IMG/VR virus record: IMGVR_UViG_3300006099_000008
Span: 1,219 to 65,218 of that record
Source of the DNA: a virus
Taxonomy: Duplodnaviria > Caudoviricetes
DNA: 64,000 bases
Reading direction: 5' to 3' (one strand)
Position 1 is the stretch's first letter; every line of letters starts with the position of its first letter. This document shows, piece by piece, positions 2,741-63,494 of the stretch. A model generated the notes under the pieces. That model made no database searches. It was not told where the DNA came from and saw only the letters and a program-made list of their open reading frames with translations. The position numbers and the translations under genes are program-made.

Positions 2741-3100
2741 ATGGAAAGCATACTTACATCAATAAAAAAGCTGTTGGGGATTGCGGAGGAATATGAACAC
2801 TTTGACGCGGATTTGATTATACACATCAATTCCGCGTTTTCTATTTTAACACAGCTGGGAGTCGGGCCGGCAGAAGGGTTTTCGATACAAGACGAGGACA
2901 CCATTTGGACAGACTTTATACCGGCAGGAGGCAAGCTGGAGTTTATTAAATCCTACGTACATTTGAAGGTAAAGCTTCTTTTCGATCCTCCGCTTAACTC
3001 GGCGGTTATAGAGTCGATAAACAGAACTCTTGGAGAGCTGGAATGGAGAATTAATGTTGAAGCTGACTGCGGAAGAAGGGAGGAAAATCAAAATGGATAA
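2741..3100 (+). CDS. probable head-tail connector / head completion protein
   Basis: MESILTSIKKLLGI..FDADLIIHINSAF..LTQLGVGP pattern; position in the head module; GAAAGGAC RBS before ATG 2741. Confidence 0.55.
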   Translation: MESILTSIKKLLGIAEEYEHFDADLIIHINSAFSILTQLGVGPAEGFSIQDEDTIWTDFIPAGGKLEFIKSYVHLKVKLLFDPPLNSAVIESINRTLGELEWRINVEADCGRREENQNG

Positions 3101-3503
3101 TATTGCTTTAAAGCATCATGGAATCAAAGGCATGAAATGGGGGATAAGAAGAACTCCGGCACAGCTTGGACGGCAAAGCGGCAGTTATAAAAAAGCCGCG
3201 GACAGAAAGGAGAAAACAAGCAGAAAAGCCGCCGTTAAGAACAGGCGTACTCTTTCCGACGTTGATCTTGAAAAAAAGGTAAAGCGACTGAAGCTGGAAA
3301 AGGAATTTAAAGAGCTTACATACTCGGATATTGCTCCAGGGAAAAAATTTGTTTCAGACGTTATGGCTTCAGCCGGAAAGAAAGCGCTTACAGTTGCCGC
3401 CGCCGGCGCGGTTTCCTATGGCGTAAAAGTGGCCATGACAAAGGAGTTCAGCATCAAGGAAGCGGCAAGCTATATTGCGGCTAACCCTAACAAAAAGAAA
3501 TAA
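3093..3503 (+). CDS. small basic protein with LKH-HGIKGMKWG leader (probable virion/head protein)
   Basis: GGGAGG RBS before ATG 3093; leader shared with other proteins in the window. Confidence 0.7.
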   Translation: MDNIALKHHGIKGMKWGIRRTPAQLGRQSGSYKKAADRKEKTSRKAAVKNRRTLSDVDLEKKVKRLKLEKEFKELTYSDIAPGKKFVSDVMASAGKKALTVAAAGAVSYGVKVAMTKEFSIKEAASYIAANPNKKK

Positions 3504-3517
3504 GGAGGAGATGAGAT

Positions 3518-5263
3518 ATGGCGTTATCAAATACCGCCGTTCCAAAATATTACGGCATGTTTCGGGACGCCGTAATAAGGGGAGAAATACCCATATGCAA
3601 GGAAATTTCAATGGAAATGAACCGCATAGACGCGCTTATTGCAAACAAGGAATATTATTATGACGATCAGGCTGTTGAGGGGTTTATACATTACTGTGAG
3701 AGGGAACTGACACTGACAGACGGAGCCGATCTCAACCTTCTTGACACATTCAAGCTTTGGGCCGAGGAGATTTTTGGCTGGTATTACTTTGACGAAAGAA
3801 GCGTTTATGAGCCTTTCCCAGATGGGCATGGAGGACATTATGTGACTAAAGTGATTAAAAAAAGGCTTGTGAACAAGCAGTATCTTATTGTGGCAAGAGG
3901 CGCGGCAAAATCCATGTACGGTTCATGCATTCAAAGCTACTTCCTTAATGTTGACACAACCACGACACATCAAATAACAACGGCGCCGACAATGAAGCAG
4001 GCGGAGGAAGTATTGTCGCCAATTCAAACGTCAATAACACGTTCACGAGGGCCGCTGTTTAAATTCCTTACGGAAGGGTCTTTACAAAACACTACAGGCT
4101 CAAAGGCAAACCGAATGAAGCTGGCCTCTACGAAGAAAGGAATTGAAAACTTTTTAACCGGCTCGCTGCTTGAAATAAGGCCCATGAGCATTAACAAGCT
4201 GCAAGGGCTTAGAACAAAGGTGGCAACCATTGACGAATGGCTTTCCGGCGACATAAGGGAAGACGTTGTGGGCGCTATCGAACAGGGAGCCTCAAAGGTG
4301 GACGACTATCTGATAGTGGCCATGAGTTCGGAAGGAACTGTCCGCAACGGCAGCGGAGATACAATCAAAATGGAGCTTATGGACATACTGAAAGGCGACT
4401 ATGAAAATCCGCATGTGTCCATATGGTACTATAAACTGGACTCCGTTGACGAGGTGCCAAACCCCGATCTCTGGTTAAAGGCCAATCCTAATATAGGAAA
4501 GACAGTTAGCTATGAAACGTATCAGCTTGACGTGGAAAGGGCCGAAAAAGCGCCTGCCACGCGCAATGATATTCTCGCAAAGCGCTTTGGCATTCCGATG
4601 GAGGGATATACATATTTCTTCACATACGAGGAAACGCTGCCCCACAGAAAAAGAAATTACTGGCAAATGCCATGCGCGCTGGGGGCGGACTTATCACAGG
4701 GGGACGACTTTTGTGCATTTACATTTTTATTTCCACTTGCAAACGGCGAGTTTGGCATTAAGACGCGGAACTATATTTCATCGCTGACATTAATGAAGCT
4801 TCCGGCGGCTATGAGGATTAAATACGATCAGTTTATGGCTGAGGGAAGTCTTATTGTTTTGGAAGGAACTGTTCTGGACATGATACAGGTTTATGAGGAC
4901 CTGGACAACCATATTGTAAAGTACGGATATGACGTGCGCTGCTTTGGATATGACCCTTACAATGCAAAGGATTTTGTTGAAAGATGGGTTTCCGAAAACG
5001 GGCCATTTGGCGTTGAAAAGGTTATTCAAGGGGCAAAGACGGAGTCTGTGCCGCTGGGAGAGCTGAAAAAGCTTTCGGAGGAAAGAATGCTTTTGTTTGA
5101 CGAAGAACTGATGACCTTTGCCATGGGCAACTGCATTGCCATGGAGGACACAAACGGAAACAGGAAGCTCTTGAAAAGGCGGTACGATCAGAAAATCGAC
5201 GCGGTTGCGGCCATGATGGACGCTTATGTGGCTTATAAGCTGAATAGAGAAGCGTTTGAATAG
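3518..5263 (+). CDS. terL: terminase large subunit
   Basis: Walker A-like VARGAAKS, Walker B IDE, nuclease GADLSQGDD and C-terminal KIDAVAA motifs; lies upstream of the portal. Confidence 0.9.
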   Translation: MALSNTAVPKYYGMFRDAVIRGEIPICKEISMEMNRIDALIANKEYYYDDQAVEGFIHYCERELTLTDGADLNLLDTFKLWAEEIFGWYYFDERSVYEPFPDGHGGHYVTKVIKKRLVNKQYLIVARGAAKSMYGSCIQSYFLNVDTTTTHQITTAPTMKQAEEVLSPIQTSITRSRGPLFKFLTEGSLQNTTGSKANRMKLASTKKGIENFLTGSLLEIRPMSINKLQGLRTKVATIDEWLSGDIREDVVGAIEQGASKVDDYLIVAMSSEGTVRNGSGDTIKMELMDILKGDYENPHVSIWYYKLDSVDEVPNPDLWLKANPNIGKTVSYETYQLDVERAEKAPATRNDILAKRFGIPMEGYTYFFTYEETLPHRKRNYWQMPCALGADLSQGDDFCAFTFLFPLANGEFGIKTRNYISSLTLMKLPAAMRIKYDQFMAEGSLIVLEGTVLDMIQVYEDLDNHIVKYGYDVRCFGYDPYNAKDFVERWVSENGPFGVEKVIQGAKTESVPLGELKKLSEERMLLFDEELMTFAMGNCIAMEDTNGNRKLLKRRYDQKIDAVAAMMDAYVAYKLNREAFE

Positions 5264-5342
5264 AAGACGATTTATATCATTTCGTTAAATGCCTCCTTAT
5301 AATCGGCGTTTACAGCATACCGCACTTTTTGTGCGAAACAAG

Positions 5343-5369
5343 CGCAAAAAACGCATATTCTTTTATGAA
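5343..5369 (+). promoter_or_regulatory. phage-specific motif copy 1
   Basis: cgcaaaaaac gcatattctt ttatgaa. Confidence 0.7.
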
Positions 5370-5393
5370 AAAGAATTCAAAGGAGGAAACGAA

Positions 5394-5747: not shown

Positions 5748-5758
5748 TCGAAAGGATT

Positions 5759-5785
5759 AGAGCCTTACAAAGGCTCTTTTCTTTT
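5759..5785 (+). terminator. intrinsic terminator of the moron
   Basis: agagcct-tacaa-aggctct followed by a T-run. Confidence 0.65.
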
Positions 5786-5809
5786 GCGGGAAAGGAGGAA
5801 TAATTCAAA

Positions 5810-7444
5810 ATGGAGTTATCAGTCAGTTCCAGGCTAAAGCACGCTTGGAACGCTTTTATGAACAAAGACCCAACAAAGTATTATGGGAACATTGGAGCCG
5901 GGTATTATTACAGGCCGGACAGGCCGAGGCTTACAAGGGGAAACGAGCGTTCAATCGTTACGTCGGTTTATAACCGAATTGCGCTGGACGCGGCGGCAAT
6001 AAACATACAGCATGTTCAGCTTGATGAAAACGACAGATTTTTATCCATAGTTGAGTCCGGATTTAACAACTGCCTTACAATGGAGGCCAATATAGACCAA
6101 ACGGCAAGGGCCTTTATTCAGGACGTGGTTATGTCTATGCTGGACGAAGGGTGCGTTGCCATTATACCAATTGACACAAGCCTAAATCCCGAGGTCACAG
6201 GCTCCTATGACATACTCACCATGAGGGCGGGAAAAATAATCGAATGGCACCCGCAGCATGTGAAAGCAAGGGTTTATAACGAAAAAACAGGGAACAAAGA
6301 GGACATACTTGTGCCCAAAGGCGTGGCGGCTATTATAGAAAATCCGCTTTACGCCGTTATAAACGAGCCTAATTCCACCATGCAAAGGCTTATACGAAAG
6401 CTAAACCTTTTGGACGCGGTGGACGAGCAAAGCAGCTCCGGAAAGCTGGATTTGATTATACAGCTTCCATATGTTATCAAATCGGAGGCAAGAAGACAGC
6501 AGGCGGAAAACAGAAGACGGGAAATGGAGGATCAGCTGGCGGGATCGAAATACGGCATTGCCTATGCCGATGGTACGGAAAGAATAACACAGCTTAACCG
6601 CCCTGTTGAGAACAATCTAATGAAGCAGATTGAATACCTGACGAGTATGCTTTACAGCCAGTTGGGGATCACTCAAAGCATATTAGATGGAACAGCAGAC
6701 GACAAAACTATGTTAAACTATTACAACCGCACGATTGAGCCTATTATTTCGGCCATAGTTGACGAGATGAAGCGAAAGTTCCTCACAAAAACGGCGAGAA
6801 GCCAAAAGAAGTCTATAATGTTCTTCCGCGATCCTTTCAAGCTGGTTCCCGTTGCGGAGCTGGCGGAGATTGCCGACAAGTTTACAAGAAACGAGATTGC
6901 AACTTCAAACGAAATGAGGCAGGCCATAGGCTGGAAGCCTTCCAAGGACCCGAGCGCCGACGAGCTTAGAAACAAGAACTTAAGCGCGCCTAAGGGAGAG
7001 GAAAATGCGCCGAAGGAAAAGGAAGAAGATGAAGACGACAGCCATTTGGAGCACCATGGCATAAAGGGACAAAAATGGGGCGTTAAGAACGGGCCGCCTT
7101 ATCCGATTGGAAGCGGCGGTGAAAAAGAGGTTGCGAAAAGCGGGAAAGGTGATACAATAAAATTAACTGGGCACAAAAGTCCATCTCTACATGGAACACC
7201 CAACACCGTAGTTGACCATTTATCAGATAATGGCGATGTTAAAGCTAGAGTTTTTTATGATAATTTAGGGCACAAAATAAACGAGATACATACTTCAGAT
7301 CACGGCCGTCCTAAGTATCATGATTTTGGAGAGCATGGCGAACATGCGCACGATTACGAATGGAACGAAAATGGTGAAATGATTGATAGAAGCCCGAGAG
7401 AAATTACTTCAAATGAACGAAAGGAGAATAAAGACATATTATGA
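5810..7444 (+). CDS. portal protein with C-terminal LEH-HGIKGQKWG leader plus His-rich toxin-like domain
   Basis: About aa 1-395 is HK97-type portal-like by position and sequence; then an acidic linker, the leader at aa 413-424, and a domain homologous to 33236..33700. Confidence 0.85.
   Translation: MELSVSSRLKHAWNAFMNKDPTKYYGNIGAGYYYRPDRPRLTRGNERSIVTSVYNRIALDAAAINIQHVQLDENDRFLSIVESGFNNCLTMEANIDQTARAFIQDVVMSMLDEGCVAIIPIDTSLNPEVTGSYDILTMRAGKIIEWHPQHVKARVYNEKTGNKEDILVPKGVAAIIENPLYAVINEPNSTMQRLIRKLNLLDAVDEQSSSGKLDLIIQLPYVIKSEARRQQAENRRREMEDQLAGSKYGIAYADGTERITQLNRPVENNLMKQIEYLTSMLYSQLGITQSILDGTADDKTMLNYYNRTIEPIISAIVDEMKRKFLTKTARSQKKSIMFFRDPFKLVPVAELAEIADKFTRNEIATSNEMRQAIGWKPSKDPSADELRNKNLSAPKGEENAPKEKEEDEDDSHLEHHGIKGQKWGVKNGPPYPIGSGGEKEVAKSGKGDTIKLTGHKSPSLHGTPNTVVDHLSDNGDVKARVFYDNLGHKINEIHTSDHGRPKYHDFGEHGEHAHDYEWNENGEMIDRSPREITSNERKENKDIL
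7131..7158 (+). promoter_or_regulatory. sigmaA-like promoter embedded in the portal-toxin linker
   Basis: TTGCGA-16-TACAAT with TGn. Confidence 0.5.
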
Positions 7445-7674
7445 ATGCAGATGAATTACGTCAAGAAATATCGTATGAGTATAATGATGTGAGTTTTTAT
7501 TATAATGGCAAACCATCGGGCATTTCGCCAGAAGTTCATAATTCCATACCAACTTTTTATGTGTGGTATGGCGATGAAGAAAAAGAATATTCTGATGTAA
7601 ATAAATTGATGTCGGATAAATTCTTTGACGGAAAATCGTTGGAAGAAATTGCTGATAAGGTCGACTATTTTTAG
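7441..7674 (+). CDS. probable cognate immunity protein of the portal-fused toxin
   Basis: ATGA overlap with the portal stop; homologous to 33697..33939 (ND..F.Y.G...G.......WYG.E...Y.D.......F..GKS). Confidence 0.65.
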   Translation: MNADELRQEISYEYNDVSFYYNGKPSGISPEVHNSIPTFYVWYGDEEKEYSDVNKLMSDKFFDGKSLEEIADKVDYF

Positions 7675-9257: not shown

Positions 9258-11102
9258 ATGAAGTATGATTTCAGCGGCTGGGCCACGAGAAATAATCTCA
9301 AGTGCTCCGACGGCCGCACAATTATGAAGGACGCATTTAAGGAATGCGACGGACAAACCATACCCCTTGTTTGGAACCACCAGCACAATATTCCCGAAAA
9401 CATACTGGGGCACGCAATGCTGGAAAACCGAAACGAAGGAGTTTATGCCTACTGCAAATTTAACGAAACGGAAACGGGCCGAAACGCCAAAATGCTTGTG
9501 GAGCATGGCGACGTATCGGCTCTTTCTATTTATGCAAACCAACTGCGGCAGGAGGGCGGCAATGTTATACATGGAGCAATACGGGAGGTGAGCCTTGTTG
9601 TGGCCGGAGCCAATCCCGGGGCCTTTATAGACTCAATTATGAGCCATGGAGAGGAATCCAGCGAGGAGGCCGTTATATATACCGGCGAAGGTATAAGCCT
9701 TTATCATGCCGACAGCGCAAAACAAGAAGATAAAGGAGAAAAAGCTGAAAGCGGTAAGAGCGAAGAGAAGAAAGACGATGATAAAGATGAAACAATCGAA
9801 GACGTTTTTAACACGCTTAGCGAAAAACAAAAAAATGTTGTTTACGCCATGATAGGACAAATCATTGAAGATGACGATAAAACCGAAAAAGACAATAGCG
9901 AACCTAAGGGAGGAGATAACGACATGAAACACAACATATTCGAAAACGACGAAAAGCAGGACGACTTTCTCAGCCATGCCGACCAGGAAGGTATCATAAG
10001 CATGGCAAAATCCAACAGCGTTGGAAGCCTTCAGGCGGCAATAAGCCTTTACGCCGAAAACAACAAGGGGGTTTTGGCGCATGGAATTGACGATATAGAA
10101 TCGCTGTTCCCGGAATACAAGGACGTTCGTCCTGGAGCGCCGGAGCTTATACAGAGGGATCAGGGCTGGGTTTCAACCGTTATGCAGAAAACACACAAAA
10201 GCCCAATCAGCCGCATACGCACACGCCAGGCCGACGCAACGGGAACCGACCTTAGGGCATTTGGTTATCAGAAGGGCAAAAAGAAGCAGGTTGCCGGAAA
10301 CATTAAGCTGCTTAAAAGGACTACCGATCCGCAGACTGTTTACCGCAAGGACGCGCTGCACAGGGACGACATAATTGACATAACCGATTTCGACGTTGTG
10401 GAATACCAATATGGCATAATGCGGCAAAATCTTAACGAGGAGATCGCGACGGCCATAATGATTGGCGATGGGCGCGAGGACGGAGACGACATGAAGATCA
10501 GTGAGGATCATATCCGTTCCATATGGCATGACGACGATCTTTACACCATACATGCCGACGTGGATATCACAGCCGCGAAACGGGAGCTTCAGGGAACAAA
10601 TACGGGAGCTAATTTCGGAGAGAATTATGTGTATGCCGAGGCCATTATAACAGCGGCGCTTTACTCCCGCGAGAGATATAAGGGAAGCGGAACGCCGGAC
10701 TTCTACTGCACGCCGCATTTGCTCAACGTTATGCTGCTTGCCAGGGATTTGAACGGCCGCCGTATATATGATTCAAAGACTGATTTGGCAGCTGCGCTTA
10801 ATGTTGGGGCAATACACACTGCCGAGCAGTTTGAAGGGAAAACAAGAACAACTAAGGACAACAAGCAAAAGAAGCTGCTGGGCATATTTGTAAATCTTTC
10901 CGACTATCAGATCGGCTGCACAAAGGGCGGCGAAATTACAAGATTCAACCAGTTTGACATCGACTTCAACCAGGAGAAATATTTGATTGAGACACGCATT
11001 TCCGGCGCCCTTACGAGAATTTACTCCGCGATTGCTCTTGAGGAGGACATGACGAAAGCCACTGTTACTACGCCAGGCGAAGGAACAGAGGAAACGGAAT
11101 AA
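9258..11102 (+). CDS. prohead protease - scaffold - major capsid polyprotein
   Basis: N-terminal HK97-type protease (FSGWAT, LVWNHQH, EVSLVVAGANPGA), acidic scaffold, C-terminal capsid domain. Confidence 0.88.
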   Translation: MKYDFSGWATRNNLKCSDGRTIMKDAFKECDGQTIPLVWNHQHNIPENILGHAMLENRNEGVYAYCKFNETETGRNAKMLVEHGDVSALSIYANQLRQEGGNVIHGAIREVSLVVAGANPGAFIDSIMSHGEESSEEAVIYTGEGISLYHADSAKQEDKGEKAESGKSEEKKDDDKDETIEDVFNTLSEKQKNVVYAMIGQIIEDDDKTEKDNSEPKGGDNDMKHNIFENDEKQDDFLSHADQEGIISMAKSNSVGSLQAAISLYAENNKGVLAHGIDDIESLFPEYKDVRPGAPELIQRDQGWVSTVMQKTHKSPISRIRTRQADATGTDLRAFGYQKGKKKQVAGNIKLLKRTTDPQTVYRKDALHRDDIIDITDFDVVEYQYGIMRQNLNEEIATAIMIGDGREDGDDMKISEDHIRSIWHDDDLYTIHADVDITAAKRELQGTNTGANFGENYVYAEAIITAALYSRERYKGSGTPDFYCTPHLLNVMLLARDLNGRRIYDSKTDLAAALNVGAIHTAEQFEGKTRTTKDNKQKKLLGIFVNLSDYQIGCTKGGEITRFNQFDIDFNQEKYLIETRISGALTRIYSAIALEEDMTKATVTTPGEGTEETE

Positions 11103-14721: not shown

Positions 14722-15099
14722 ATGATAAGTTTCAGACAAAAAGGAGATTTTTCAAAACTGACAAAATACTTTGAGCGTATAAGGGAAACGGCGCATTTAG
14801 GGATTCTCGACAAGTATGGAAAGCAAGGAGTTCTTGCCCTGTCGGCCGCAACGCCTGTTGACACTGGGAAAACGGCGGCTTCATGGCGCTACAGCATAAG
14901 CAATAAAAACGGTACCGCCGTTATTTCTTTTTACAACTCAAACATTCAAAATGGAGTTCCGATAGCCATAATACTGCAATACGGGCATGGAACGCGCAAC
15001 GGAGGCTGGGTACAGGGGCGAGATTATATCAATCCTGTTATCCAGCCTGTTTTTGACAAAATGGTAAACGACGTATGGAGGGAGGTTACAAAGCTATGA
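14722..15099 (+). CDS. HK97 gp10-like tail component
   Basis: ATPVDTGKTAASW and LQYGHGT motifs. Confidence 0.7.
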   Translation: MISFRQKGDFSKLTKYFERIRETAHLGILDKYGKQGVLALSAATPVDTGKTAASWRYSISNKNGTAVISFYNSNIQNGVPIAIILQYGHGTRNGGWVQGRDYINPVIQPVFDKMVNDVWREVTKL

Positions 15100-18000
15100 G
15101 CCGAGAAATTGACGAAAGAATTGTTGAAATGCGGTTTGATAACCGCCAGTTTGAAAGCAACGTTCAAACCAGTTTGTCAACGCTTGAAAACCTCAAGCAA
15201 AGCCTGAAGATGGACGGAGCGTCAAAGGGGCTGGAGAATGTTGGAGCGGCGGCAAAGGACTGCGATATGTCGCCGCTTACTAAATCCGTTGAAACAGTAC
15301 GCATGAAATTCTCCGCCTTAGAGGTTATAGCTGTAACTGCTCTCGCAAACATAACAAATTCAGTAATCAACGCTGGAAAACAGCTTGCTAAGACTTTTGC
15401 CATTGATCCGATTGTGGACGGATTTAAGGAATACGAGCTTAAAATGGGCTCCATTCAAACAATGATGATGGGCTCTGGGGCGTCTTTGAGCGAAGTAAAC
15501 GGCTATCTCGACGAATTAAATACATACGCCGACAAAACCATTTATTCCTTTGCGGACATGACCTCCAACATTGGAAAATTTACCAACGCCGGAGTTAGCC
15601 TTAAGGATTCGGTTTTGGCAATACAGGGTGTTTCCAACGCGGCGGCCGTATCCGGGGCCAACGCCAACGAGGCTTCAAGAGCCATGTATAATTTCGCGCA
15701 GGCTTTATCGGCGGGATATGTTAAGCTTATAGACTGGAAGTCTATAGAAAATGCCAACATGGCGACTGTGGAGTTCAAAACACAGCTTCTTGAAGCCGCC
15801 GTTGCGGCGGGAACGGTTGCCAGAACATCAGGCGGAATGTATAAGGTGCTGACGAAAAACAACATGGGGTCTACCATGGGAGAAGCCATTGACGCGACTC
15901 ACTCCTTTAACGACAGCTTGCAGCACCAGTGGCTGACGACTGAGGTTTTGGTAAACACGCTGAGAGATTATGCGGACGAAACAACGGAAATAGGAAAAAA
16001 GGCGTTTGCGGCGGCCCAAGATGTTAAGACGTTCAGCCAGTTAATGGACACTCTTAAAGAGGCTGTTGGTTCCGGCTGGGCCATGACGTGGGAGGTCTTA
16101 TTCGGCGATTTTAACGAGGCAAAAGAGCTTTGGACCGGCATAAGCAACGTTGTGGGAGGATTTATAGACAGTCAGTCCCAAGCACGAAACGATTTGCTTA
16201 AAGCGGGGCTTAGTTCCGGCTGGAAGCAGTTTCTTGATCAGGGCATAAGCGACTCAAAGGCATACGAGGATATAATTGTATCTGTGGCAAAGGAGCATGG
16301 AGTCGCCATAGAGGATATGCTGAAAGAGTGCGGAAATTTTGAGAAAACACTGAAACAGGGCTGGCTGACTTCTGATATTTTATCGGAATCGCTTACGAGG
16401 CTTACTGACAAAACGCGAGGCTTATCTGATGAAGAACTTGAAGCGGCAGGATATACGCGAAAGCAGGCGGAAGAGCTGGAAAAGCTGGAGGCTTCTGTTA
16501 AAGACGGAAGCGTTTCCATTGAGGAGTTTACTGAAAAAATCAACAGAGCCTCGGGACGTGAGAACGTTATAGAGGGACTTAAGAATACGTTTGAGGGGCT
16601 TATAAGCGTTGTTTCTCCTATAAAAAACGCCTTTAACGAAATATTTCCGCCGGCAACGGCAGAGCAGCTTTATATTCTAACGGAAAGGTTCAGAGAGTTT
16701 ACGTCAAAGCTCAAGCTGGGAAAAGAAACAGCCGAAAACCTTAAAAATACATTTAAAGGCGTATTTGCCGTTTTGGATATATTGGGCCGGGCTTTTTCAT
16801 CGCTGTTTAATTTTCTTCCATCGTCATTTGGCGTTTTAGGCACTTTAAGCGGAGGATTTTTAGGCGTTACTGGCGCGATTGGGCAATGGCTTGTTAAACT
16901 TGACGAGGCCATAAAGGAAAGCGATATTTTTAACAAGGCCGTTCAAGGAATTATTACCTTTATAAATAAGGCTAAAAACGCAATTGTGGATTTTGCCGGA
17001 AACATTAAAGAAAAGTTCGGCATACCGGGCTTTGAGGAAGTAAAGGCTTCGTTTGAAGAATTTATAGGCAATTTAAAAGAAAAAATTTCAATTCCCGCTT
17101 TCGAGGGATTTGGCGCTATTCTTGACGGATTAAAAAAGAGAATAGAGCAAGTCAAAAGCGTTGCCGGAGAAATGAAGGCCGGGCTTTTGGATATTTTCAA
17201 GGGAATGGGAGAATCCGTCTCCAACTGCAATTTTGTTCGTATACTGGAAGCGATTTGGAACGCCGTTAAAAGAATTGCCGGAGGAATTACAACTGAGATT
17301 GGCAAACTAGCCGGGAAACTGACAGACGGAATTAGCAACGCCGATTTTAGCGGACTTATCGATCTGTTGAACGGCTTATCCATTGGCGGCATTGCGCTGG
17401 GGATCAACAGATTTTTCAGCGCGGCTAAAAAAGCCGTTGACGAAGGATTAGATTTCAAGGAGCAAATTACTGATATTCTTGACAGTGTGAGAGGCTGCTT
17501 TGAAGCGTATCAAACGCAGCTAAAGGCGGGAGCGCTTCTCAAAATCGCGTCCGCAATGGGGATATTGGCCGCTTCCATACTTGTTATATCTTTGATAGAC
17601 AGCGACAAGCTAAATTCTTCGCTGGGTGCAATGACAGTTTTATTTGCCGATTTAATGGCTTCTATGGCTGTATTCTCAAAGATAAGCGGAATCATAAGAG
17701 GCGTTTTCAAAAGCGTTTTCGCAATGCTTGGCATTTCCGCCGCCGTTTTTATACTGGCAGGGGCTCTGAAAACCATAGGCGATCTTGATTTGGATCAAAT
17801 TGAAAATGGCTTGATTGGGATCGGCGGTTTAACGGCCATTGTAGTGGCCGCGGCAAAAATAATGGGAACTGGTACAAAAGCCATTATAAAAGGCGCCGCG
17901 CAAATGGTTATATTTTCGGCGGCTTTAAAAATTTTGGTTACGGTGTGCGAGGATTTATCGGAGCTTGACTGGGAGCAGCTAACAAAGGGGCTAACTGGCG

Positions 18001-21000
18001 TTGGCGTGCTTTTGGCCGAGGTGGCGCTGTTTTTAAGAATGTCTAAGTTCAGCGGCAAAGCGGTTTCGACCGCCGCCGGAATAGTCGTGTTGTCGGTTGC
18101 TATTGGCCGTTTGGCTGTTGTATGCGGGACCTTTGCGCAAATGCGATGGGAAGAGCTTGGAAAGGGTCTTACGGCCATAGGCGCTCTGTTGGCTGAAATT
18201 TCAGTTTTTACAAGAGCTACTGGAAACGCGAAGCATGTTATTTCCACAGGAGCGGCGCTTTTAATAATCGCACAGGCCATGAAAACGTTCGTTGACGTTA
18301 TAAACCGCCTTGACGACACGCAATGGAACGACATAGCAAAAGGGCTCGCCGTTATAGGAGGGGTTTTAGCTTCTATAGCCGTTTCTTCGAAAGTTATGCC
18401 TAAAAACATGATTGGGATTAGTTTAGGCTTAATAGGCGTTGGAGCGGCGCTTGAAATATTGGCCAACGTCATGCAAAGAATAAACCAAATGGAGCCTGAA
18501 CAGATAGAAAAGGCTTTGATAACTATCGGTGTGGCTCTTGTGGAGTTTGCGGTTGCGCTCAACCTTATGAAAGGAACGCTTTCAGGCTCGGCGGCGTTAA
18601 CTGTCGCCTCATTAGCAATCGCCATGCTTACGCCATCGCTTATCGCCCTGGGGAGGCTTGGCTGGGAGGACATTGCCAAAGGGCTTATAGCTGTTGCCGG
18701 AGCTTTTACCGTTATAGGAATAGCTGGAGCGGTTTTGACGCCCCTTGTTCCGGCTATTTTAGGTCTCGCAGGCTCTTTTGCTCTTATAGGGGTTGGCATT
18801 CTTGGCATTGGCGCGGGGCTTTTAGCCGCTTCCGCCGGTTTATCGGCGCTGGCCGTTGGGTTTGCAGCACTGGCGGCTTCGGGGGTGGCCGGAGCAACTG
18901 CGGTCGTCGCATCGTTAACGGTTATTATTACAGGCATAGCGGCGCTTATACCGGCGGTTATGGAAAAAATCGGAGAAGGAATAATCGCGCTTTGCAAGGT
19001 TATTGCGGAGGGAGCGCCGGCAATTGGAGAAGCGTGCAAAGCCATTGTGATTACATTTATTGACGTTCTTAGAGAATGCGTGCCCGAGATAGCAGACGGG
19101 GTGCTTTTTCTGCTGACGTCGGTATTATCTTCGGTTGTGGAATACACGCCTAAAATTGTGGACCTGCTTATGCAGTTTCTTATAAAAGTTCTTGACGGAA
19201 TTGCCGGAAGGCTCCCGGAACTGATACAATCGGCAGTTGGCGTGATAATGGCGTTTTTCTCCGGCGTTACGGAAGCATTAAGCGGAATAGACGTTGACAT
19301 TCTGCTGAAGGGCATTGTGGGAATAGGACTGATATCCGCTATTATGCTGGCATTAAATGCGGTGGCCTCTTTAGTTCCCGGTGCAATGGTTGGCGTTCTT
19401 GGAGCGGGTCTTATTATAGCAGAGATAGCGCTTGTTTTGGCGGCTGTCGGCGCTTTAGCGCAAATACCAGGGCTGAACTGGCTTATTGGTGAAGGCGGCA
19501 AGCTGCTGGAAAACGTCGGAGTCGCAATAGGCTCGTTTATTGGCGGAATAATCGGCGGGCTTGTTGGCGGCGTTACCGGGCAATTCCCACAAATAGCAAC
19601 CGATCTTTCGAATTTTATGAACAATATCCGGCCGTTTATAGAAGGAGCCGGAAAAATTGACGCCGCTTCCCTTGAGGGAGTCAGGGCGCTTGCGGAAACA
19701 ATACTTATACTAACCGCCGCGGACGTTTTACAGGGGCTTACGTCATGGCTTACCGGAGACAAAGCGTCAATGGCGGAATTTGGCTCGGAACTTGCGGCCT
19801 TTGGGCCATATTTCAATCAATACTACGAATCTGTTAAGGGGGTTAAAGGAGACGTTGTCCAGGCGTCGGCCAACGCGGCAAAAACTCTTGCCGAAATGGC
19901 GGCGATACTTCCAAACAGCGGCGGACTTGCCGGGTGGTTTGCCGGCGAAAACAGTTTATCGGCCTTTGCCGAAGAGCTTGTACTATTTGGGCCGAAGCTA
20001 AAGGAATACGCCGAAAGCGTATCGGGGCTGGACTCCAATGTGGTTGTTAACTCGGCCAACGCGGCGTCGGCCATGGCTGAAATGGCGGGGAAGCTCCCCA
20101 ACAGCGGAGGCGTTTTAGCCGAGTGGATTGGCGACAACACGCTCGCGAGTTTTGCAAACGAGTTGGCAACTTTTGGGCCAAAGCTAAAGGAATACGCCGA
20201 AAGTGTTTCGGGGCTTGACAAAGGAGTCGTTGAAAATTCCGCCGCCGCGGCGCTGACGTTGGCGGAGCTTTCGGACAAGCTGCCAAACAGCGGAGGGGCC
20301 GTAAGCTGGTTTACCGGAGACAACGACTTATCGACATTTGGCGAAAACCTTGTTTCATTCGGAGAAAACTTTGCCGGTTATTCCGCTTATATGGAGGGCG
20401 TTAAACCGGATATTTTAACGGCGACTACATCGGCTGTAAAGGCCATGATTGAAATTCAAAATGGCCTAAAGGAATCGGGAGGAATATTATCCGGAAATAC
20501 AGCGCTTTCGAAATTTGGCTATGACTTATCTTCCTTCGGGTACAGTTTAAGTCTTTACTACAGCTATATCGAAGCTGTTGATCCGACGCATTTAGCGGCT
20601 GTTACGACGGAAACGAACGGACTGGCCGCTATGATAAGAGGTTTGTCCGGGCTGGATACAGCAGGCGCCAGCTCATTTGGGAAAGCAATTGGCGATTTGG
20701 GAAGAAGCGGCGTTGACAAGTTTATAGAAGCCTTTGACGTCGCGGGAGCGCGGGCCGCCGAGGCCGCTTCCAAAATGCTTGCGGCGTTTGCCGAGTCGGC
20801 AAAAGAAAAAGCCAATAATTTATATCCAATCTTTGCTGGAATAGCCGAACATGCGGTTACGGCCATCGAAAGCAGATACAAGGACTTTACGGGCGCCGGA
20901 AGAGAATGCGTCGCCCAGTTTATTGCCGGGGTGAAAAGTCAGGAGGACAGCGCCAGGTCGGCGTTTAATTATAGCTTTAATGCCGTTACTGATGTTGTCG

Positions 21001-30284: not shown

Positions 30285-31193
30285 ATGAATTTAGCAGAAT
30301 TGACAGATGAGTATTTATTTGACTGTGAATGCAGGAAGCTATCTAAGAAAACGGTGGAAAATTACAGGAAACAAATTGGATATTTGCTGCAATATCTGAA
30401 AGAGGAATGCAGCGTTACAGACATAGAAGAGATTAAGACCCGGCACATAAAACAGTATTTGCTGGCGAAGCAAAAGGCGGGGAACAAGCCTAATTATATT
30501 AACGACTTGCTCAAGGTTTATAAAACCATGTTCCGATATTTTTATAATGAAGGATATACGGAAACTTTGATTACCGAAAAAATACATAACGTTAAAAAGG
30601 AAAAGGTTATCATCAGAACTTTTACAAAAGAAAATGTAAAAGCCATGATAAATTTTTATAGTGGAAATGATTTTTTAAGTATACGAAATAAAACTATTAT
30701 GATTGTTTTGTTTGACACAGGTATTCGATTGTCGGAATTGCTTAATTTGAAAACCATTGATTTAAAGGAAGACTATATCATTGTTGTAAACGGAAAGGGA
30801 GGGAAAGACAGAGTTGTTCCCAAGAGCCCGTTCCTTTCAAAATGGCTTTTCAAGTATCAAAGCATAAGAAGAAGTTATTTTATAGACAGATATTTGGATA
30901 ACAAAGAGTTGTTTTTGAGCAAAAACTGTAAAAGGCTATCTCGTGAAATGGTGGAGAGGATTGTAAAAGATGTTGGAAAATTTGCCGGGGTATCTAAAGA
31001 GGTAAGAGTTTCGCCACATACTTGCAGGCATACATATGCGCAGATGCAGTTGAAAAACGGCCTAAATATATACAGCTTAAGCAGACTGTTAGGGCATGAA
31101 AATATATCTATTACACAAACATATTTGAACGGGATAAGAGACGAACAAGTTTTGATAGAAGGAAGGATATCAAGTCCGCTTATGAATTTATAG
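30285..31193 (+). CDS. int: tyrosine integrase / recombinase
   Basis: DTGIRLSEL (R), GKGGKDR (K), HTCRH (H-x-x-R), LGHENISITQTY (H, Y). Confidence 0.93.
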   Translation: MNLAELTDEYLFDCECRKLSKKTVENYRKQIGYLLQYLKEECSVTDIEEIKTRHIKQYLLAKQKAGNKPNYINDLLKVYKTMFRYFYNEGYTETLITEKIHNVKKEKVIIRTFTKENVKAMINFYSGNDFLSIRNKTIMIVLFDTGIRLSELLNLKTIDLKEDYIIVVNGKGGKDRVVPKSPFLSKWLFKYQSIRRSYFIDRYLDNKELFLSKNCKRLSREMVERIVKDVGKFAGVSKEVRVSPHTCRHTYAQMQLKNGLNIYSLSRLLGHENISITQTYLNGIRDEQVLIEGRISSPLMNL

Positions 31194-33131: not shown

Positions 33132-33235
33132 ATTTTTTAAATTTCCCGTACGCAGGTGACGGAAAAGTGTGGTATTTTGATATTTGAAAAATTCCCCAGG
33201 TGGGATTTTTTGAAAAAACGTTTTGGAAGGAGGGT

Positions 33236-33700
33236 ATGCAATTGCGACAATGGCTATACTACTATTGCCTTGAAATTCTAAGGTCTAAAGAGCTTTGTCA
33301 TTATGGCGTGAAAGGCATGAAGTGGGGCGTTAAAAGGACGCCGGAGGAGTTGGGGCGTAAAAGAGAAACTGCTATATCAGTTGAAAAAACAAATAGAGGT
33401 GGTATAATTAAGAAAACTTTTTACGGACATGTGAAGTCGCCAAGACAGGCAGAGCCTAACGCAATTATAGACTATATTTCTCATGAGGGAAAAGTTAATA
33501 AAAGAAGTTATTATGGTCCAGATGGATTCAAAATTAAAGATATTCATACTACGGATCACAAAAACCCCAAAGAACACCCTTATGGAAAAACGGGGGAACA
33601 TGCGCATGATTATACGTGGAATACAGACGGAACCCCGAAAAATAAAACGATAAGAGAACTTACAGAAAAGGAGAGAAAGGAGAATAGCGATATATTATGA
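33236..33700 (+). CDS. LCH-YGVKGMKWG leader plus His-rich toxin-like domain
   Basis: GGAAGGAGG RBS; the domain is homologous to the portal tail (IHT.DH..PK.H..G..GEHAHDY.WN..G...RE.T..ERKEN.DIL). Confidence 0.75.
   Translation: MQLRQWLYYYCLEILRSKELCHYGVKGMKWGVKRTPEELGRKRETAISVEKTNRGGIIKKTFYGHVKSPRQAEPNAIIDYISHEGKVNKRSYYGPDGFKIKDIHTTDHKNPKEHPYGKTGEHAHDYTWNTDGTPKNKTIRELTEKERKENSDIL
33381..33408 (+). promoter_or_regulatory. sigmaA-like promoter embedded in the toxin linker
   Basis: TTGAAA-16-TATAAT with TGn. Confidence 0.55.
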
Positions 33701-33939
33701 CTATAAGATATTTAAAAGATGCAGTAAAAGAGGGAAACGACTTTTACTTTCATTACAAGGGTGAAAACGCTGGTGTAGAATCTGCCGTCAAAGATTCTGT
33801 CGTGAAATATGAAGCTTGGTATGGTGAGGAAATAAGGCAATATGATGACTTTGACGATGTATTGAACGATAGATTTTATTGCGGAAAATCAATTTTAGAA
33901 TTATTAGCAAAAAATATTATAGAAATTAATTTTTCATAA
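33697..33939 (+). CDS. probable cognate immunity protein
   Basis: ATGA overlap; homologue of 7441..7674. Confidence 0.65.
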   Translation: MTIRYLKDAVKEGNDFYFHYKGENAGVESAVKDSVVKYEAWYGEEIRQYDDFDDVLNDRFYCGKSILELLAKNIIEINFS

Positions 33940-50864: not shown

Positions 50865-51350
50865 ATGATAAAGAAATTTTATTTAGATATAGATAATCCA
50901 AAGGGAGGATTATATCATTATGGCGTTAAAGGTATGAAGTGGGGTGTTAGGAGGACGCCAGAACAGTTGGGGCATTTAAAATGTACAGTTGATAAATCAA
51001 AAGAACATAGTATAATGTCAAATGAGACCGTGTTAAGCAAGAAAGGCTTTATGATAAATGGCAGTAAAATTGTTGATTTTTTATTGAAACCAAAGGCTAA
51101 GCATTCACATGAATTTTTTAATGTTGGCTATACACCACAAGACAGCAGGAGGCTTTTTGAAGACATAGAGAAAGGCTATGATTTATCAAAGGCCACCGAT
51201 GTTGTCAAAATAAACGATATAGAAAAGTTTAGCATTTTTATGAATTTGGGAATAACTTCAAAAAGGCCTTTTAGAACAGTATGGCAAATTGATGGGCAAA
51301 ATTCAAAACCAAGATTAATCACAGCTCATAGGGAGGATAAAAATGTTTAA
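50865..51350 (+). CDS. LYH-YGVKGMKWG leader plus DUF6883-like toxin domain
   Basis: Leader, then KIVDFLL...KHSHEFF.VGY and FRTVWQID...PRLITAH. Confidence 0.7.
   Translation: MIKKFYLDIDNPKGGLYHYGVKGMKWGVRRTPEQLGHLKCTVDKSKEHSIMSNETVLSKKGFMINGSKIVDFLLKPKAKHSHEFFNVGYTPQDSRRLFEDIEKGYDLSKATDVVKINDIEKFSIFMNLGITSKRPFRTVWQIDGQNSKPRLITAHREDKNV
50989..51016 (+). promoter_or_regulatory. sigmaA-like promoter embedded in the toxin linker
   Basis: TTGATA-16-TATAAT. Confidence 0.55.
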
Positions 51351-51540
51351 ATTATACGATAAAGTTAAAATAAAGAAAAATGGAATAACTGGCGTAATTG
51401 TAGATATATATAAAGGGAAAAAAGGGATCATGTATACAATAGAAAGTGATACTAAAAGCTCAGACTATTCAGAAGGTGATTATAAATCGCTATGGCCACT
51501 ATATGATTGTATTTCTGATGATCTTGAATGTTTGAAATAA
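51343..51540 (+). CDS. DUF4926-like probable cognate immunity protein
   Basis: Overlaps the toxin stop; FKLYDKVKIKKNGITGVIVDI. Confidence 0.6.
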   Translation: MFKLYDKVKIKKNGITGVIVDIYKGKKGIMYTIESDTKSSDYSEGDYKSLWPLYDCISDDLECLK

Positions 51541-59415: not shown

Positions 59416-59449
59416 GAGTACAATTTTAGTCTGCATTTTTAATAAATTG

Positions 59450-59760: not shown

Positions 59761-59813
59761 AAAAATGTTGTTTTTTACAAGTTTTGAGATAGACGTTTAA
59801 ACTATTTTAGCCA

Positions 59814-59840
59814 CGCGAAAAATACATAGACTTTTATGAA
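59814..59840 (+). promoter_or_regulatory. phage-specific motif copy 14 (upstream of the nuclease-RNAP operon)
   Basis: cgcgaaaaat acatagactt ttatgaa. Confidence 0.75.
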
Positions 59841-59896
59841 GAGAGAGGAATAAAACGGCCATTTTTAAATATGGCACTCTCTTTTTTTTATTTTCA

Positions 59897-60208: not shown

Positions 60209-60737
60209 AGGGCAGCACGCTTTTCTTGGCGCAAGTAAATACCACTGGATTAATTATGATGAAGCAAAGGTAGCCGAGTCGTATTCAAAATTTTTGGCAA
60301 CTCAGAAAGGAACGGTTCTTCATGAGTTTGCGGCTCAGTGTATTGCGCTTGGACAGAAGCTTCCTAAATCGCAAAAGACATTAAACATGTATGTAAACGA
60401 CGCAATTGGCTATAAAATGGTGCCAGAGCAAATACTCTTTTATTCGGAGAACTGTTTTGGCACAGCAGACTCAATTATGTTTCGCAAAGGATTCCTTAGA
60501 ATACACGATTTAAAAACGGGTGCGATTCCGGCCCACATGGAGCAGCTTGAAATATATGCCGCTCTTTTTTGTTTGGAATATAAAATAAAACCGGCAGACA
60601 TTGAAATGGAATTAAGGCTTTATCAAAATAATGAAATTATATTCCATAATCCGACAGCCGAGGACATTGCACCGATTATGGATAAGATCGTTATATTTGA
60701 CAAAGTAATTAATAAGATTAAGGAGCAGGAGGGTTAA
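60180..60737 (+). CDS. PD-(D/E)XK (Cas4/DUF2800-like) nuclease
   Basis: HAFLGAS..GTVLH..FGTAD..IHDLKTG..QLEIYA. Confidence 0.7.
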   Translation: MNFNSHLNLEGQHAFLGASKYHWINYDEAKVAESYSKFLATQKGTVLHEFAAQCIALGQKLPKSQKTLNMYVNDAIGYKMVPEQILFYSENCFGTADSIMFRKGFLRIHDLKTGAIPAHMEQLEIYAALFCLEYKIKPADIEMELRLYQNNEIIFHNPTAEDIAPIMDKIVIFDKVINKIKEQEG

Positions 60738-60740
60738 TGT

Positions 60741-63494
60741 ATGAATCCGATTGCGGAGGAAATTTTAATGCACTATGGAATGCCAAAGCGTTCAGGACGT
60801 TATCCTTGGGGGTCTGGCAAAGATCCATATCAGCACAGCGGCGATTTTTTAAGCCGAGTTCAGGAGCTCAAAAAATCAGGTCTCAGCGAAACGAAAATTG
60901 CCGATACCATGGGATTATCCACAACGCAGCTTAGAACACAGATAAGCTTGGCTAAAGATGAAAGACGTTCTCTTCAGGTTGCGACAGCTAAAGGACTTAG
61001 GGAAAAGGGATATAGTCTAAATGAAATTGCCGAAAAGATGGGCTTTGCCAACGATTCGTCTGTAAGAACTCTTCTTAATGAAAATTCAGAGGCACGTATG
61101 AATCAGGCGAAGAAAACCGCCGAATTTCTTAAAAAGCAGATTGACGAAAAAGGAATGATTGACGTTGGCATAGGCGTGGAGCGCGAGCTGGGCATTTCAA
61201 AAGAGAAATTAAATCAGGCTTTGTACATGCTTGAAATGGAAGGTTATCCGGTTTATGGAGGCCGCGTTGATCAGGTTACTAACCCTGGCAGGAAAACAAC
61301 ATTAAAAGTGATTTGTCCTCCAAACACTGAACATAAAGAGATATACAATTTTGAAAATATTAACTCCTTAAGGGATTATATTTCCCATGATGACGGCGAA
61401 ACATTTGATCCGAAATTTGTTTATCCTAAAAGCATGGATTCAAAGCGGCTTAAAATAAGATACGCTGACGAGGGCGGAGTTGATAAAGACGGCGTTATCG
61501 AAATACGTCGCGGAGTCGACGACCTGTCTTTGGGAAATTCGCATTATGCTCAAGTTCGTATCCTTGTTGACGACACTCATTATATAAAAGGCATGGCCGT
61601 TTATTCAGATGATTTGCCTAAAGGCATTGACGTGCTCTTTAATACAAATAAAAAGAGCGGAACGGCAAAAGAAGACGTTTTAAAACCTATTAAAAACGAT
61701 CCCGACAATCCATTTGGGTCGTTGATTAAAGATGGTATTAACGATCCTGACAGCGGCATTCCTGAAAGGGGAGGACAAAGCTACTACTATGATAAAAACG
61801 GAAAAAAGCAGTTATCTCTTATCAATAAACGCGCGGAAGAAGGCGATTGGGGCGAGTGGGCCGATAAGCTTCCTTCTCAGTTCCTTTCAAAACAGAGCAT
61901 CACATTGATAAAAAAGCAGCTCAACCTTGCAGCGGCAGACAAGCAGTTTGAATTTGATGAAATTTGCTCTCTTACAAACCCTACAGTCAAGAAAAATTTG
62001 TTAAAATCTTTTGCTGATGACTGCGACTCCGCGGCAGTTCACCTACAGGCAGCCGCTTTGCCAAGGCAGAAGTATCAGGTTATTCTCCCTCTTACATCAA
62101 TTAAGGATAATGAAGTGTACGCTCCAAACTACAACGATGGCGAAACAGTTGCTTTAATTCGTTATCCGCATGGCGGCACGTTTGAGATTCCTATTCTTAA
62201 AGTAAATAATAAACAGGCGGAAGGACGGAAGATTTTAGGGAATACTCCAGCTGACGCCATAGGCATTAATAAAAAGGTTGCTGACAGGCTTTCTGGAGCT
62301 GATTTCGACGGCGATACTGTTATGGTTATTCCATGCAATTCATCAAGAAGCAAAGTGAAGATTACATCTACTTCGCAACTAAAAGGGCTTGAAGGCTTCG
62401 ATCCAAAGATGGATTACGGAACTGTACAGAACGGAGACAATTACTATAACAACGCTGGACACAAGATAAAAGTAATGAGCAATACCCAGACAGAAATGGG
62501 AAAGATTTCAAACTTAATTACTGACATGACACTTAAGGGTGCTACACAGGACGAGCTGGCGAGAGCGGTGCGGCACAGTATGGTTGTCATTGACGCTGAG
62601 AAGCATAAGCTTGACTATAAGCAAAGTGAACGTGACAATGGTATCACTTCTTTGAAGAAAAAGTATCAGGCTCATGAAGACAATGACAGATACGGAGGAG
62701 CGTCTACTTTGATTTCAAGGGCAAAGTCCGAGGTTTCTGTTTTAAAAAGAAAGGGCAGCCCTACCATTGACAGGGAGACAGGAGAGCTGAGCTGGAAGAC
62801 TGTTAACGAGGAGTATGTTGACAAGACGGGGCGCGTTAAAACAAGAATGCAAAAGAGTACCCGTATGGCTGAAACAAAAGACGCCCGTACTCTCATATCA
62901 GACGCCGACACTCTGGCTGAAAGGGCTTATGCAGATTATGCCAACAAAATGAAAGCACTTGCCAATCAAGCCCGCAAAGAGATGGTCACTACCGGCAAAA
63001 TAAAATACTCGGCCTCTGCTAAAAGTACATATCAGCAAGAGGTAGACTCCCTTATGGCAAAGCTAAACGTAGCTTTAAAGAACGCTCCGCGCGAACGCCA
63101 TGCTCAGACTATGGCTAACTCTGTTGTAGACGCTAAGAAAAAACAAAACCCTGATATGACAAAGGCCGAGATTAAAAAAACCAGTCAGCAGGCATTAACA
63201 GCGGCGCGTACAACTGTTGGAGCTAAAAGAACTCCTGTTAATATAACGGACCGCGAATGGGAAGCGATTCAGGCTGGCGCAATAAGTGAAAACGTACTTA
63301 CGCAAATTCTTAATAACGCAGATATTGATGCTGTTAGACAAAGAGCAACGCCGCGTGCGGCAAATACTCTAAGCGTTGCTAAAACAAACCGCATTTCAGC
63401 ATTAAATGCGTCTGGATATACAACTTCTGAAATAGCCAAAGCCCTTGGAATATCGGCTTCAACTGTATCAAAGTATCTAAATGGAAAGGAGTGA
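60741..63494 (+). CDS. single-subunit two-barrel RNA polymerase homologue (YonO / cellular-RdRP-like) with HTH domains and LMH-YG leader
   Basis: QVR....IKGMAV, RYPHGG..EIP.L, ADRLSGADFDGD motifs; two N-terminal HTHs and one C-terminal HTH. Confidence 0.75.
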   Translation: MNPIAEEILMHYGMPKRSGRYPWGSGKDPYQHSGDFLSRVQELKKSGLSETKIADTMGLSTTQLRTQISLAKDERRSLQVATAKGLREKGYSLNEIAEKMGFANDSSVRTLLNENSEARMNQAKKTAEFLKKQIDEKGMIDVGIGVERELGISKEKLNQALYMLEMEGYPVYGGRVDQVTNPGRKTTLKVICPPNTEHKEIYNFENINSLRDYISHDDGETFDPKFVYPKSMDSKRLKIRYADEGGVDKDGVIEIRRGVDDLSLGNSHYAQVRILVDDTHYIKGMAVYSDDLPKGIDVLFNTNKKSGTAKEDVLKPIKNDPDNPFGSLIKDGINDPDSGIPERGGQSYYYDKNGKKQLSLINKRAEEGDWGEWADKLPSQFLSKQSITLIKKQLNLAAADKQFEFDEICSLTNPTVKKNLLKSFADDCDSAAVHLQAAALPRQKYQVILPLTSIKDNEVYAPNYNDGETVALIRYPHGGTFEIPILKVNNKQAEGRKILGNTPADAIGINKKVADRLSGADFDGDTVMVIPCNSSRSKVKITSTSQLKGLEGFDPKMDYGTVQNGDNYYNNAGHKIKVMSNTQTEMGKISNLITDMTLKGATQDELARAVRHSMVVIDAEKHKLDYKQSERDNGITSLKKKYQAHEDNDRYGGASTLISRAKSEVSVLKRKGSPTIDRETGELSWKTVNEEYVDKTGRVKTRMQKSTRMAETKDARTLISDADTLAERAYADYANKMKALANQARKEMVTTGKIKYSASAKSTYQQEVDSLMAKLNVALKNAPRERHAQTMANSVVDAKKKQNPDMTKAEIKKTSQQALTAARTTVGAKRTPVNITDREWEAIQAGAISENVLTQILNNADIDAVRQRATPRAANTLSVAKTNRISALNASGYTTSEIAKALGISASTVSKYLNGKE

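Follow-up and report, generated by a model that had tools for sequence, protein, structure and literature searches.

A leader peptide with a hydrophobic-x-histidine site, shared by toxin-like proteins and a portal and, in variant form, by an RNA polymerase, probably marks virion cargo in a siphovirus lineage

Viral head-maturation proteases such as phage T4 gp21, which cuts at [LI]-x-E, and herpesvirus assemblin, which cuts at [VL]-x-A/S, follow a common hydrophobic-x-P1 logic, where P1 is the residue before the cut. In HK97 (gp4/gp5) and lambda (gpC/gpNu3), an S78-type protease frees the capsid precursor of its scaffold or delta segment, and the lambda portal is also processed. RNA polymerases (RNAPs) packaged in phage virions are exemplified by the virion RNAP (vRNAP) of N4 and the two-barrel gp66 of crAss-like phages. 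Protein cargo can be addressed to the head by a short peptide, as with the capsid-targeting sequence (CTS) on T4 IPI–III and Alt, which is removed by the prohead protease gp21 (PMC3012670), or by a folded carrier, as with the MuF-type proteins, which are portal-associated head proteins such as SPP1 gp7 (PMC5576092). Here, we analyze a 64,000-nucleotide window of the genome of a tailed gut phage (bases 1219–65218 of the 65,218-bp IMG/VR record IMGVR_UViG_3300006099_000008; CheckV completeness 100%), in which a short leader peptide containing the site L-x-H recurs on otherwise unrelated proteins and resembles sites in the linker of a protease–scaffold–capsid fusion protein. We propose that the leader is probably a tag that loads proteins into the virus particle, where the head protease probably cuts them.

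The tag is about 20 residues long and has the consensus L-x-H/[HY]-G-x-[KL]-G-[MQ]-K-W-G-x-[RK], where the slash marks the putative cut, flanked by P3-P2-P1 on the N-terminal side and by P1' on the C-terminal side. A six-frame scan of the window for [LMIV]-x-H-[HY]-G returned positions 3108, 7046, 33293, 50910 and 60765, all on the plus strand, which reproduced the five leader sites of a preliminary description of this DNA. Further matches to a looser pattern read H-F-G only (43173 on the plus strand, 37477 and 2413 on the minus strand), and none is followed by KGxKWG. A sixth canonical leader gene, with E-L-F-H/Y-G-V-K-G-M-K-W-G, lies just 5' of the window (G000:C1:943–1353). The motif corresponds to the function-unknown Pfam family DUF7211 (PF23847), the profile of which comprises 25 positions with a gathering cut-off of 27 bits; no paper mentioning the family was found in our literature search. 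The model matches four of the five window sites and the copy 5' of the window, scoring 32.2 bits for the open reading frame (ORF) at 3030–3503, 39.6 bits for 33200–33700, 42.9 bits for 50865–51350 and 42.2 bits for the upstream copy. The copy within the portal gene is borderline (22.9 bits in one search, 27.4 in another), and the N-terminus of the RNAP (60741–63494) gave no PF23847 match in the Pfam search.

The phage was placed by protein searches with Lactococcus phage 1706, the Faecalibacterium phages and an actinophage supercluster (Arthrobacter, Gordonia, Streptomyces, Rhodococcus), and its genome is that of a 65-kb siphovirus of this Lactococcus-1706/Faecalibacterium-Oengus/actinophage supercluster. 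The grouping of 1706-like, Faecalibacterium and actinophage members has already been published, with a helix-turn-helix (HTH)-flanked YonO-like polymerase as signature gene (10.1101/842583). A megablast comparison of the head module with cultured phages gave no match. For comparison, 80 related IMG/VR loci were retrieved via the protease–capsid fusion protein, and 83 fusions, including those of phage 1706, ReqiPepy6 and this genome, were aligned.

Leader copies were picked from 69 loci selected by their capsid gene with a pattern that makes no reference to L-x-H (G-x-x-G-x-[KRQ]-[WF]-G). Among the resulting 129 copies, P3 is Leu, Ile or Val in 127 and P1 is His in 123, and P2 is free, so that L-x-H forms an integral, near-invariant part of the leader module. 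The nearest Met lies only 4–16 residues ahead of the site, and the pre-peptides are short and variable; a cut would therefore take off little sequence and leave the conserved tag segment on the mature cargo. Placing the cut one residue later (H-[HY]/G) was ruled out, as P3 would then vary and P1 would not always be His. The Gram-positive KxYKxGKxW signal-peptide motif was likewise ruled out as an explanation of the tag, since the two are in different registers and the tag is not followed by a hydrophobic segment.

A leader profile built from 47 leaders and searched against 1.84 billion proteins hit 50,184 cluster representatives at E ≤ 1e-3 and 21,632 at E ≤ 1e-10. The best 150 hits contain 343 copies, of which 213 are internal; a hydrophobic-x-His site precedes every one, a count biased towards perfect sites because the profile itself contains L-x-H. 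Single proteins among these hits carry up to five copies and reach 1,569 residues, with a median spacing of 214 residues; some, with three to five copies, resemble cargo polyproteins, and proteins of the order DUF5662–DUF7211–cargo also occur. The tag thus reads as a junction module and not as an N-terminus alone, in the layout of a polyprotein that would be cut at the boundaries of its units.

The C-termini of 105 tagged proteins from the related loci fall into 23 clusters, many of them singletons and the largest with 66 members, and the leader behaves as the swappable module on unrelated C-termini that had been proposed. The presence of several copies per genome could come from duplication, in which case the proteins would be paralogues sharing an N-terminal segment with no common function. 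We find this hardly credible: the 23 clusters are unrelated, homologues of the C-terminal modules are found independently on other carriers, and the representatives found by the profile are spread over phages of Firmicutes and Actinobacteria.

The second set of sites lies in the protease–scaffold–capsid fusion, encoded on the plus strand at 9258–11102. Protease–capsid fusion as such has been noted in Arthrobacter phages (PMC5513430). An S78 protease domain (residues 1–129; Peptidase_S78, PF04586, 26.3 bits against a cut-off of 21) is followed by an acidic linker (residues 130–275) and the capsid domain (residues 276–614). In 40 sequences H41, S90 and E110 are invariant and H105 is nearly so, a set that fits an active S78 enzyme in which these residues would have catalytic roles. 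The linker His residues are H130 (nucleotide 9645), H150 (9705), H225 (9930), H240 (9975) and H275 (10080). Translation returned the four leader-like sites listed previously at the same coordinates, M-S-H/G (9639), L-Y-H/A (9699), L-S-H/A (9969) and L-A-H/G (10074), together with the 339-residue capsid protein that a cut after H275 would give. It also showed one site beyond these four, M-K-H/N (nucleotides 9924–9935, residues 223–226).

Leu or Met occupies P3 of all five linker His residues in this protein (shuffle p = 0.0003). The 72 distinct linkers together hold 467 His residues, of which 409 (88%) have Leu, Ile, Val or Met at P3, compared with a background of 18.5% and with 5% in the capsid domain, and P1' is Ser, Gly, Ala or Asn. 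All 83 fusions retain H130, where the protease domain ends, and H275, directly ahead of the capsid N-arm; at H275, P3 is Leu in 82 and P1' is Gly in 79. Around the His sites the linker is otherwise variable and acidic, and the fusions of Lactococcus phage 1706 and Rhodococcus phage ReqiPepy6 show the same linker His pattern. An AlphaFold2 model shows a folded protease (residues 1–129), a likewise folded, HK97-like capsid body, and disorder at residues 130–179, 200–238 and 270–291; all five linker sites fall within the disordered segments or at their edges. The fusion protein had no match among PDB sequences. The linker His sites look like functional processing sites, and their hydrophobic P3, free P2 and fixed P1 fit the site logic of T4 gp21 and herpesvirus assemblin. 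The site type common to the leaders and the domain boundaries of the linker, first described for one genome, holds throughout the lineage. Chance cannot explain either the leader set or the linker-site set, given the Pfam E-values (1e-8 to 1e-11) and the conservation.

The strongest argument that tagged proteins would be loaded into the particle is the swapping of domains between the tag and MuF-type carriers. The GEHAHD domain, an all-beta domain of about 105–120 residues (AlphaFold2 model with a predicted local distance difference test score of 83), is found behind MuF (PF04233), Phage_min_cap2 (PF06152), VG15 (PF25310) or DUF7211; in Streptococcus phage MissB1 it forms the C-terminus of a head-morphogenesis protein and is followed by its partner gene. 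DUF6883 occurs behind DUF7211, MuF or VG15, and Ntox50 occurs behind DUF7211 (E 2.7e-16 on L037:6866–7345). Ntox50 has been listed as a MuF toxin domain, and Phage_min_cap2 is also termed 'MuF2' (Jamet et al. 2017, PMC5576092). Other partners in the related loci include a P-loop NTPase and a weak match to a glutamine-deamidase toxin, and a wider homologue search found Ntox50 many times, Gln_amidase, GNAT and DUF6883 on DUF7211 proteins. The variable toxin-like C-termini predicted for leader-profile hits are thus present, as Ntox50, glutamine deamidase, DUF6883, DUF4258 (a toxin family of the BECR/RelE superfamily; PMC11980606), GNAT acetyltransferase and P-loop NTPase. The preliminary description had called the tagged cargo toxins. 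For the window this holds only in part, as its leader proteins have no above-cut-off Pfam match besides DUF7211. It had also reported no MuF gene, in agreement with our finding that neither PF04233 nor PF06152 matched at E ≤ 1 anywhere in the whole 65-kb genome.

Gene neighborhoods and records of cultured relatives also connect the tag with the virion. In 80 viral loci selected by the leader, the TerL of this lineage lies within 10 kb in 77 and the protease domain in 57, and, of the three TerL exceptions, one has the fusion at another place on its contig. ReqiPepy6 (L004 10681–19935) has eight consecutive tagged genes (gp13, gp15–gp21) around TerL and portal, each opening with D-x-F-L-A-H/Y-G-V-K-G-M-K-W-G; as this phage infects actinobacteria, the tag system spans two bacterial phyla. 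In the record of phage 1706 (EU081845), the depositors give the label 'structural protein' to the two-tag orf7 and to the polymerase, orf75; the ReqiPepy6 record carries this label by similarity.

The tagged genes of the window itself vary in position and partner. The core leader gene (3093–3503, plus strand; phrog_7021, E 8e-30) lies between a connector gene and TerL and encodes M-D-N-I-A-L-K-H/H-G-I-K-G-M-K-W-G, a basic region and a hydrophobic C-terminus; the latter belongs to the largest of the 23 clusters, and the gene matches 1706 orf7 in position and sequence.

The portal gene (5810–7444, plus strand; Phage_portal, E 7e-15) encodes a portal core (residues 1–395), an internal tag L-E-H/H-G-I-K-G-Q-K-W-G (nucleotides 7046–7081) and a GEHAHD domain (nucleotides 7082–7444). 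Homologues align to residues 1–392 only, and the portal core is followed by 149 residues here compared with 12–60 in most relatives. The tail shares 46% identity with the cargo domain of the tagged gene at 33200 and 45% with the C-terminus of the MissB1 MuF-like protein. A portal–tag fusion occurs in this genome only, among the 83 compared, and probably arose recently by fusion of a cassette that in L027, L029 and L032 lies immediately 5' of the portal gene. A few relatives have a different portal extension: in L045:8103–9983, L046 and L050, 232 basic, coiled-coil-like residues follow M-L-E-H/S and L-K-H/Y, without KGxKWG. The N-terminus of the portal contains R-L-K-H/A-W-N (window 5831–5845, residues 8–12), which could be a further processing site. 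It was not counted as one, as L-x-H is found there in 56 of 77 portals, with Asn, Ser, Arg or Lys in place of His in the rest. The start of a 77-residue acidic ORF (7441–7674, plus strand) overlaps the portal stop (ATGA). Its product is 36% identical to that of the ORF at 33697–33939 (E 1e-15) and 42% identical to that of the ORF after the MissB1 MuF gene (E 8e-10), and the pairing of the portal-tail cargo with a small ORF recurs in L027, L029 and L032. The ORF looks like an immunity partner of the portal cargo domain.

The second GEHAHD protein is encoded at 33200–33700 (plus strand; likely start ATG 33236) with the tag E-L-C-H/Y-G-V-K-G-M-K-W-G at 33293, and its C-terminal domain has a match (E 1.6e-5) in the C-terminus of phrog_18811, which is annotated 'toxin'. 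The homologous 80-residue acidic ORF (33697–33939, plus strand) overlaps the stop of this gene and similarly looks like the immunity partner of its cargo.

The tagged DUF6883-like protein (50865–51350, plus strand; G-L-Y-H/Y-G-V-K-G-M-K-W-G at 50910) has homologues with both PF23847 and PF21814, and its C-terminal domain is found elsewhere alone or fused to MuF or VG15. Overlapping its stop, a 65-residue ORF (51343–51540, plus strand) was called as a gene in three independent contigs with an identical leader protein and had no family match; it is a weakly supported candidate partner. An identical copy of the 50865 protein is encoded at the end of a 199,735-bp contig (L090, JGI 3300006139), beside SecDF and HD-domain genes; this contig end may mark a prophage junction or be a chimera of the assembly.

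The sixth leader gene (L092:943–1350), just 5' of the window, joins DUF7211 to DUF4258 (25.8 bits, cut-off 25). Downstream of it lie three tandem paralogous acidic ORFs of about 122 residues each (135–506, 503–871 and 868–1236, plus strand), with pairwise identities of 83–90% and 28–32 Asp plus Glu compared with 15–17 Lys plus Arg; these look like an immunity gene array behind a toxin-like gene. Each toxin-like cargo gene in this genome is directly followed on its 3' side by one or more small, mostly acidic ORFs, and one cargo/small-ORF pair is kept in three carrier contexts; none matched an immunity family.

The polymerase gene (60741–63494, plus strand) is the last large gene of the record and encodes a two-barrel, YonO/QDE-1-like RNAP (phrog_4291, E 0; PF05183 weak, E 0.007) with D-F-D-G-D at residues 521–525 (the DxDGD loop) and a C-terminal HTH. 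Its leader, I-L-M-H/Y-G-M-P-K-R-S-G-R-Y-P-W-G (nucleotides 60765–60812), shares with the tag only L-x-H-Y-G and G-R-Y-P-W-G-S-G, the latter resembling 'KWGxKNGPPYP' variants of the tag. The variant leader is well conserved: [LI]-x-H-Y is found in 26 of 26 related polymerase loci, as L-M-H-Y in 24, and the site is L-Q-H/Y in phage 1706 and L-A-H/Y in ReqiPepy6. In 38 of the 80 leader-selected loci the polymerase lies at most 10 kb upstream of the packaging module, and it is thus a neighbor of the late genes across the genome ends in the circular or concatemeric form.

From these comparisons we infer the following pathway, the whole of which (loading by the tag, cutting at L-x-H and delivery) we give a probability of roughly 0.6. 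The S78 protease would cut after the His of hydrophobic-x-His sites; cuts in the linker would free the protease domain, chop the linker and yield the mature capsid protein. The tag would bring cargo into the assembling procapsid, doing the job of the MuF-domain carriers of other phages, and a cut at its L-x-H would detach the portal-borne domain, separate the units of multi-tag proteins and trim a short N-terminal peptide from the others. The cargo, including the putative toxins, would leave with the DNA at infection. Our confidence is higher for a virion cargo tag taken by itself and lower for a cut at the L-x-H of the tag.

Several observations weigh against this pathway. P1' is aromatic (His, Tyr, Phe or Trp) in the leaders and small (Gly, Ser, Ala or Asn) in the linker; the supposed cut lies ahead of the conserved peptide, which would be kept on the cargo; and removal of pre-peptides that can be as short as 4–5 residues has no obvious purpose. 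In addition, the portal copy keeps the whole tag, which a portal does not need for targeting. All four points would suit a virion-incorporation tag whose L-x-H is an uncut structural part of a binding motif, with only the linker sites being cleaved. This alternative appears unlikely to us, as hydrophobic-x-His is kept in 213 of 213 internal copies with a unit-like spacing, portal extensions of the L045 type have His sites without the rest of the tag, and a variable P2 stands between fixed P3 and P1 in both sets of sites. A complex prediction for protease residues 1–124 with a 45-residue leader (score 0.02, mark 0.32) weighs neither way on binding. In the literature, we found no experiment on His cleavage or on a mature N-terminus in this lineage (the 1706 and ReqiPepy6 genome papers lay outside the search); the papers on Arthrobacter phages, on Streptomyces phages and on a capsid dendrogram contain neither proteomics nor cleavage results for it, a preprint on proteases of cyclic-oligonucleotide-based antiphage signalling systems has nothing on His sites, and no description of His at P1 was found for prohead proteases.

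Loading into the particle and the nature of the cargo can be questioned as well. The structural module is distant from the genes at 33200 and 50865, whose neighbors are small accessory genes. The bacterial genes beside the identical 50865 protein at the end of the 199,735-bp contig fit prophage expression, under which a gene of this type may be active. The 'structural protein' label in the 1706 record, said to be based on mass spectrometry, is silent on head versus tail. Conceivably, the tag is unrelated to the particle and marks proteins for another fate, be it release at lysis, export or binding to a host factor, its likeness to the linker sites being a mere resemblance. We regard this as quite improbable: there is no hydrophobic signal segment, the tag is joined to the portal and to an enzyme that depends on DNA and would be useless outside a cell, the place of the core tagged gene, between connector and TerL, is fixed, the cargo partners are common to MuF head proteins, and the 1706 record labels the corresponding proteins structural. 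As to the cargo, the C-terminus of the 50865 protein reaches only E 7.5e-4 with DUF6883, below the Pfam cut-off. The GEHAHD model had no Foldseek match in the PDB at E ≤ 0.001, and its context is what makes this domain toxin-like. A wide VIA-align search with the same model gave weak hits to beta-hairpin repeat proteins (Rhs cores, fibres; best Z 4.7), and the Atlas results were limited to 'hypothetical' clusters and a lead to Ntox24 at 12%.

A bolder version of the proposed pathway, which we hold tentatively and consider doubtful, is that the capsid-fused protease is itself the cargo receptor. Tags would dock in its active site via L-x-H and the basic GxKGxKWG, enter the procapsid in this way and be cut free inside, with cargo supplied singly, on the portal or as polyproteins of up to five units. 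The more than 50,000 clusters from phages of Firmicutes and Actinobacteria would then represent a general and programmable route of protein delivery, injecting toxins and a ready-made polymerase through a siphoviral tail.

The large genes are all on the plus strand. The head module comprises, besides the features described above, the connector gene (Phage_connect_2 profile, 2723–3100), which is followed by the tagged basic protein, and TerL (profile match, 3518–5263). A 2,864-residue ORF (window 15075–23669) occupies the tape-measure position; the rule of 1.5 Å per residue would give an unusually long tail for it. A tyrosine-recombinase-like ORF (window 30285–31193) suggests that the phage may be temperate.

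If the pathway is correct, DUF7211, a very large unstudied family that runs to about 50,000 clusters at 50% identity, would gain a function, and prohead proteases would gain a new specificity, His at P1. The pathway would also explain how toxins and an RNAP could be delivered with the DNA, free of MuF, in a siphovirus supercluster from gut, dairy and soil, and would make the 20-residue tag a candidate tool for packing phage heads with foreign proteins. Members in culture include 1706, ReqiPepy6 and hundreds of SEA-PHAGES phages of Arthrobacter, Gordonia and Streptomyces.

Compared with the T4 CTS, the tag is similar in being a short shared N-terminal peptide on diverse proteins, which in T4 are encapsidated and injected, and in that the cargo site is of the same type as the scaffold and capsid-precursor site, here hydrophobic-x-His in both sets with a differing P1'. 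The two sequences are unrelated, however, with His at P1 here and Glu in T4. The conserved peptide lies C-terminal of the site and would be retained here, whereas the T4 peptide lies N-terminal of its site and is removed. Moreover, the tag is also found internally, in tandem units and on a portal, and the protease is fused to the capsid protein.

The likeness to the MuF polymorphic toxins carried by temperate phages (PMC5576092) consists in a constant N-terminal head module with variable toxin C-termini, small downstream genes and a location in the packaging module near the portal, and at least three C-terminal modules are shared (GEHAHD, DUF6883 and Ntox50). In contrast to those proteins, there is no MuF domain here, the carrier being a 20-residue peptide instead of a folded domain of about 110–360 residues; a genome has several tagged genes, and the tag is linked to a protease site and is also found, as the variant leader, on an RNAP.

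With the RNAPs of N4 and crAss-like phages, the polymerase shares its phage single-subunit nature and the DxDGD two-barrel loop, and a relative, 1706 orf75, is listed as a virion component. The differences are that this lineage is siphoviral and that its polymerase, of about 900–1,030 residues and only putatively packaged and ejected, carries a processing/tag motif. Relative to HK97 and lambda, the main difference is that protease, scaffold and capsid are one polypeptide. Thus, the system works like T4 CTS/gp21 and like the MuF polymorphic toxins, yet is a member of neither.

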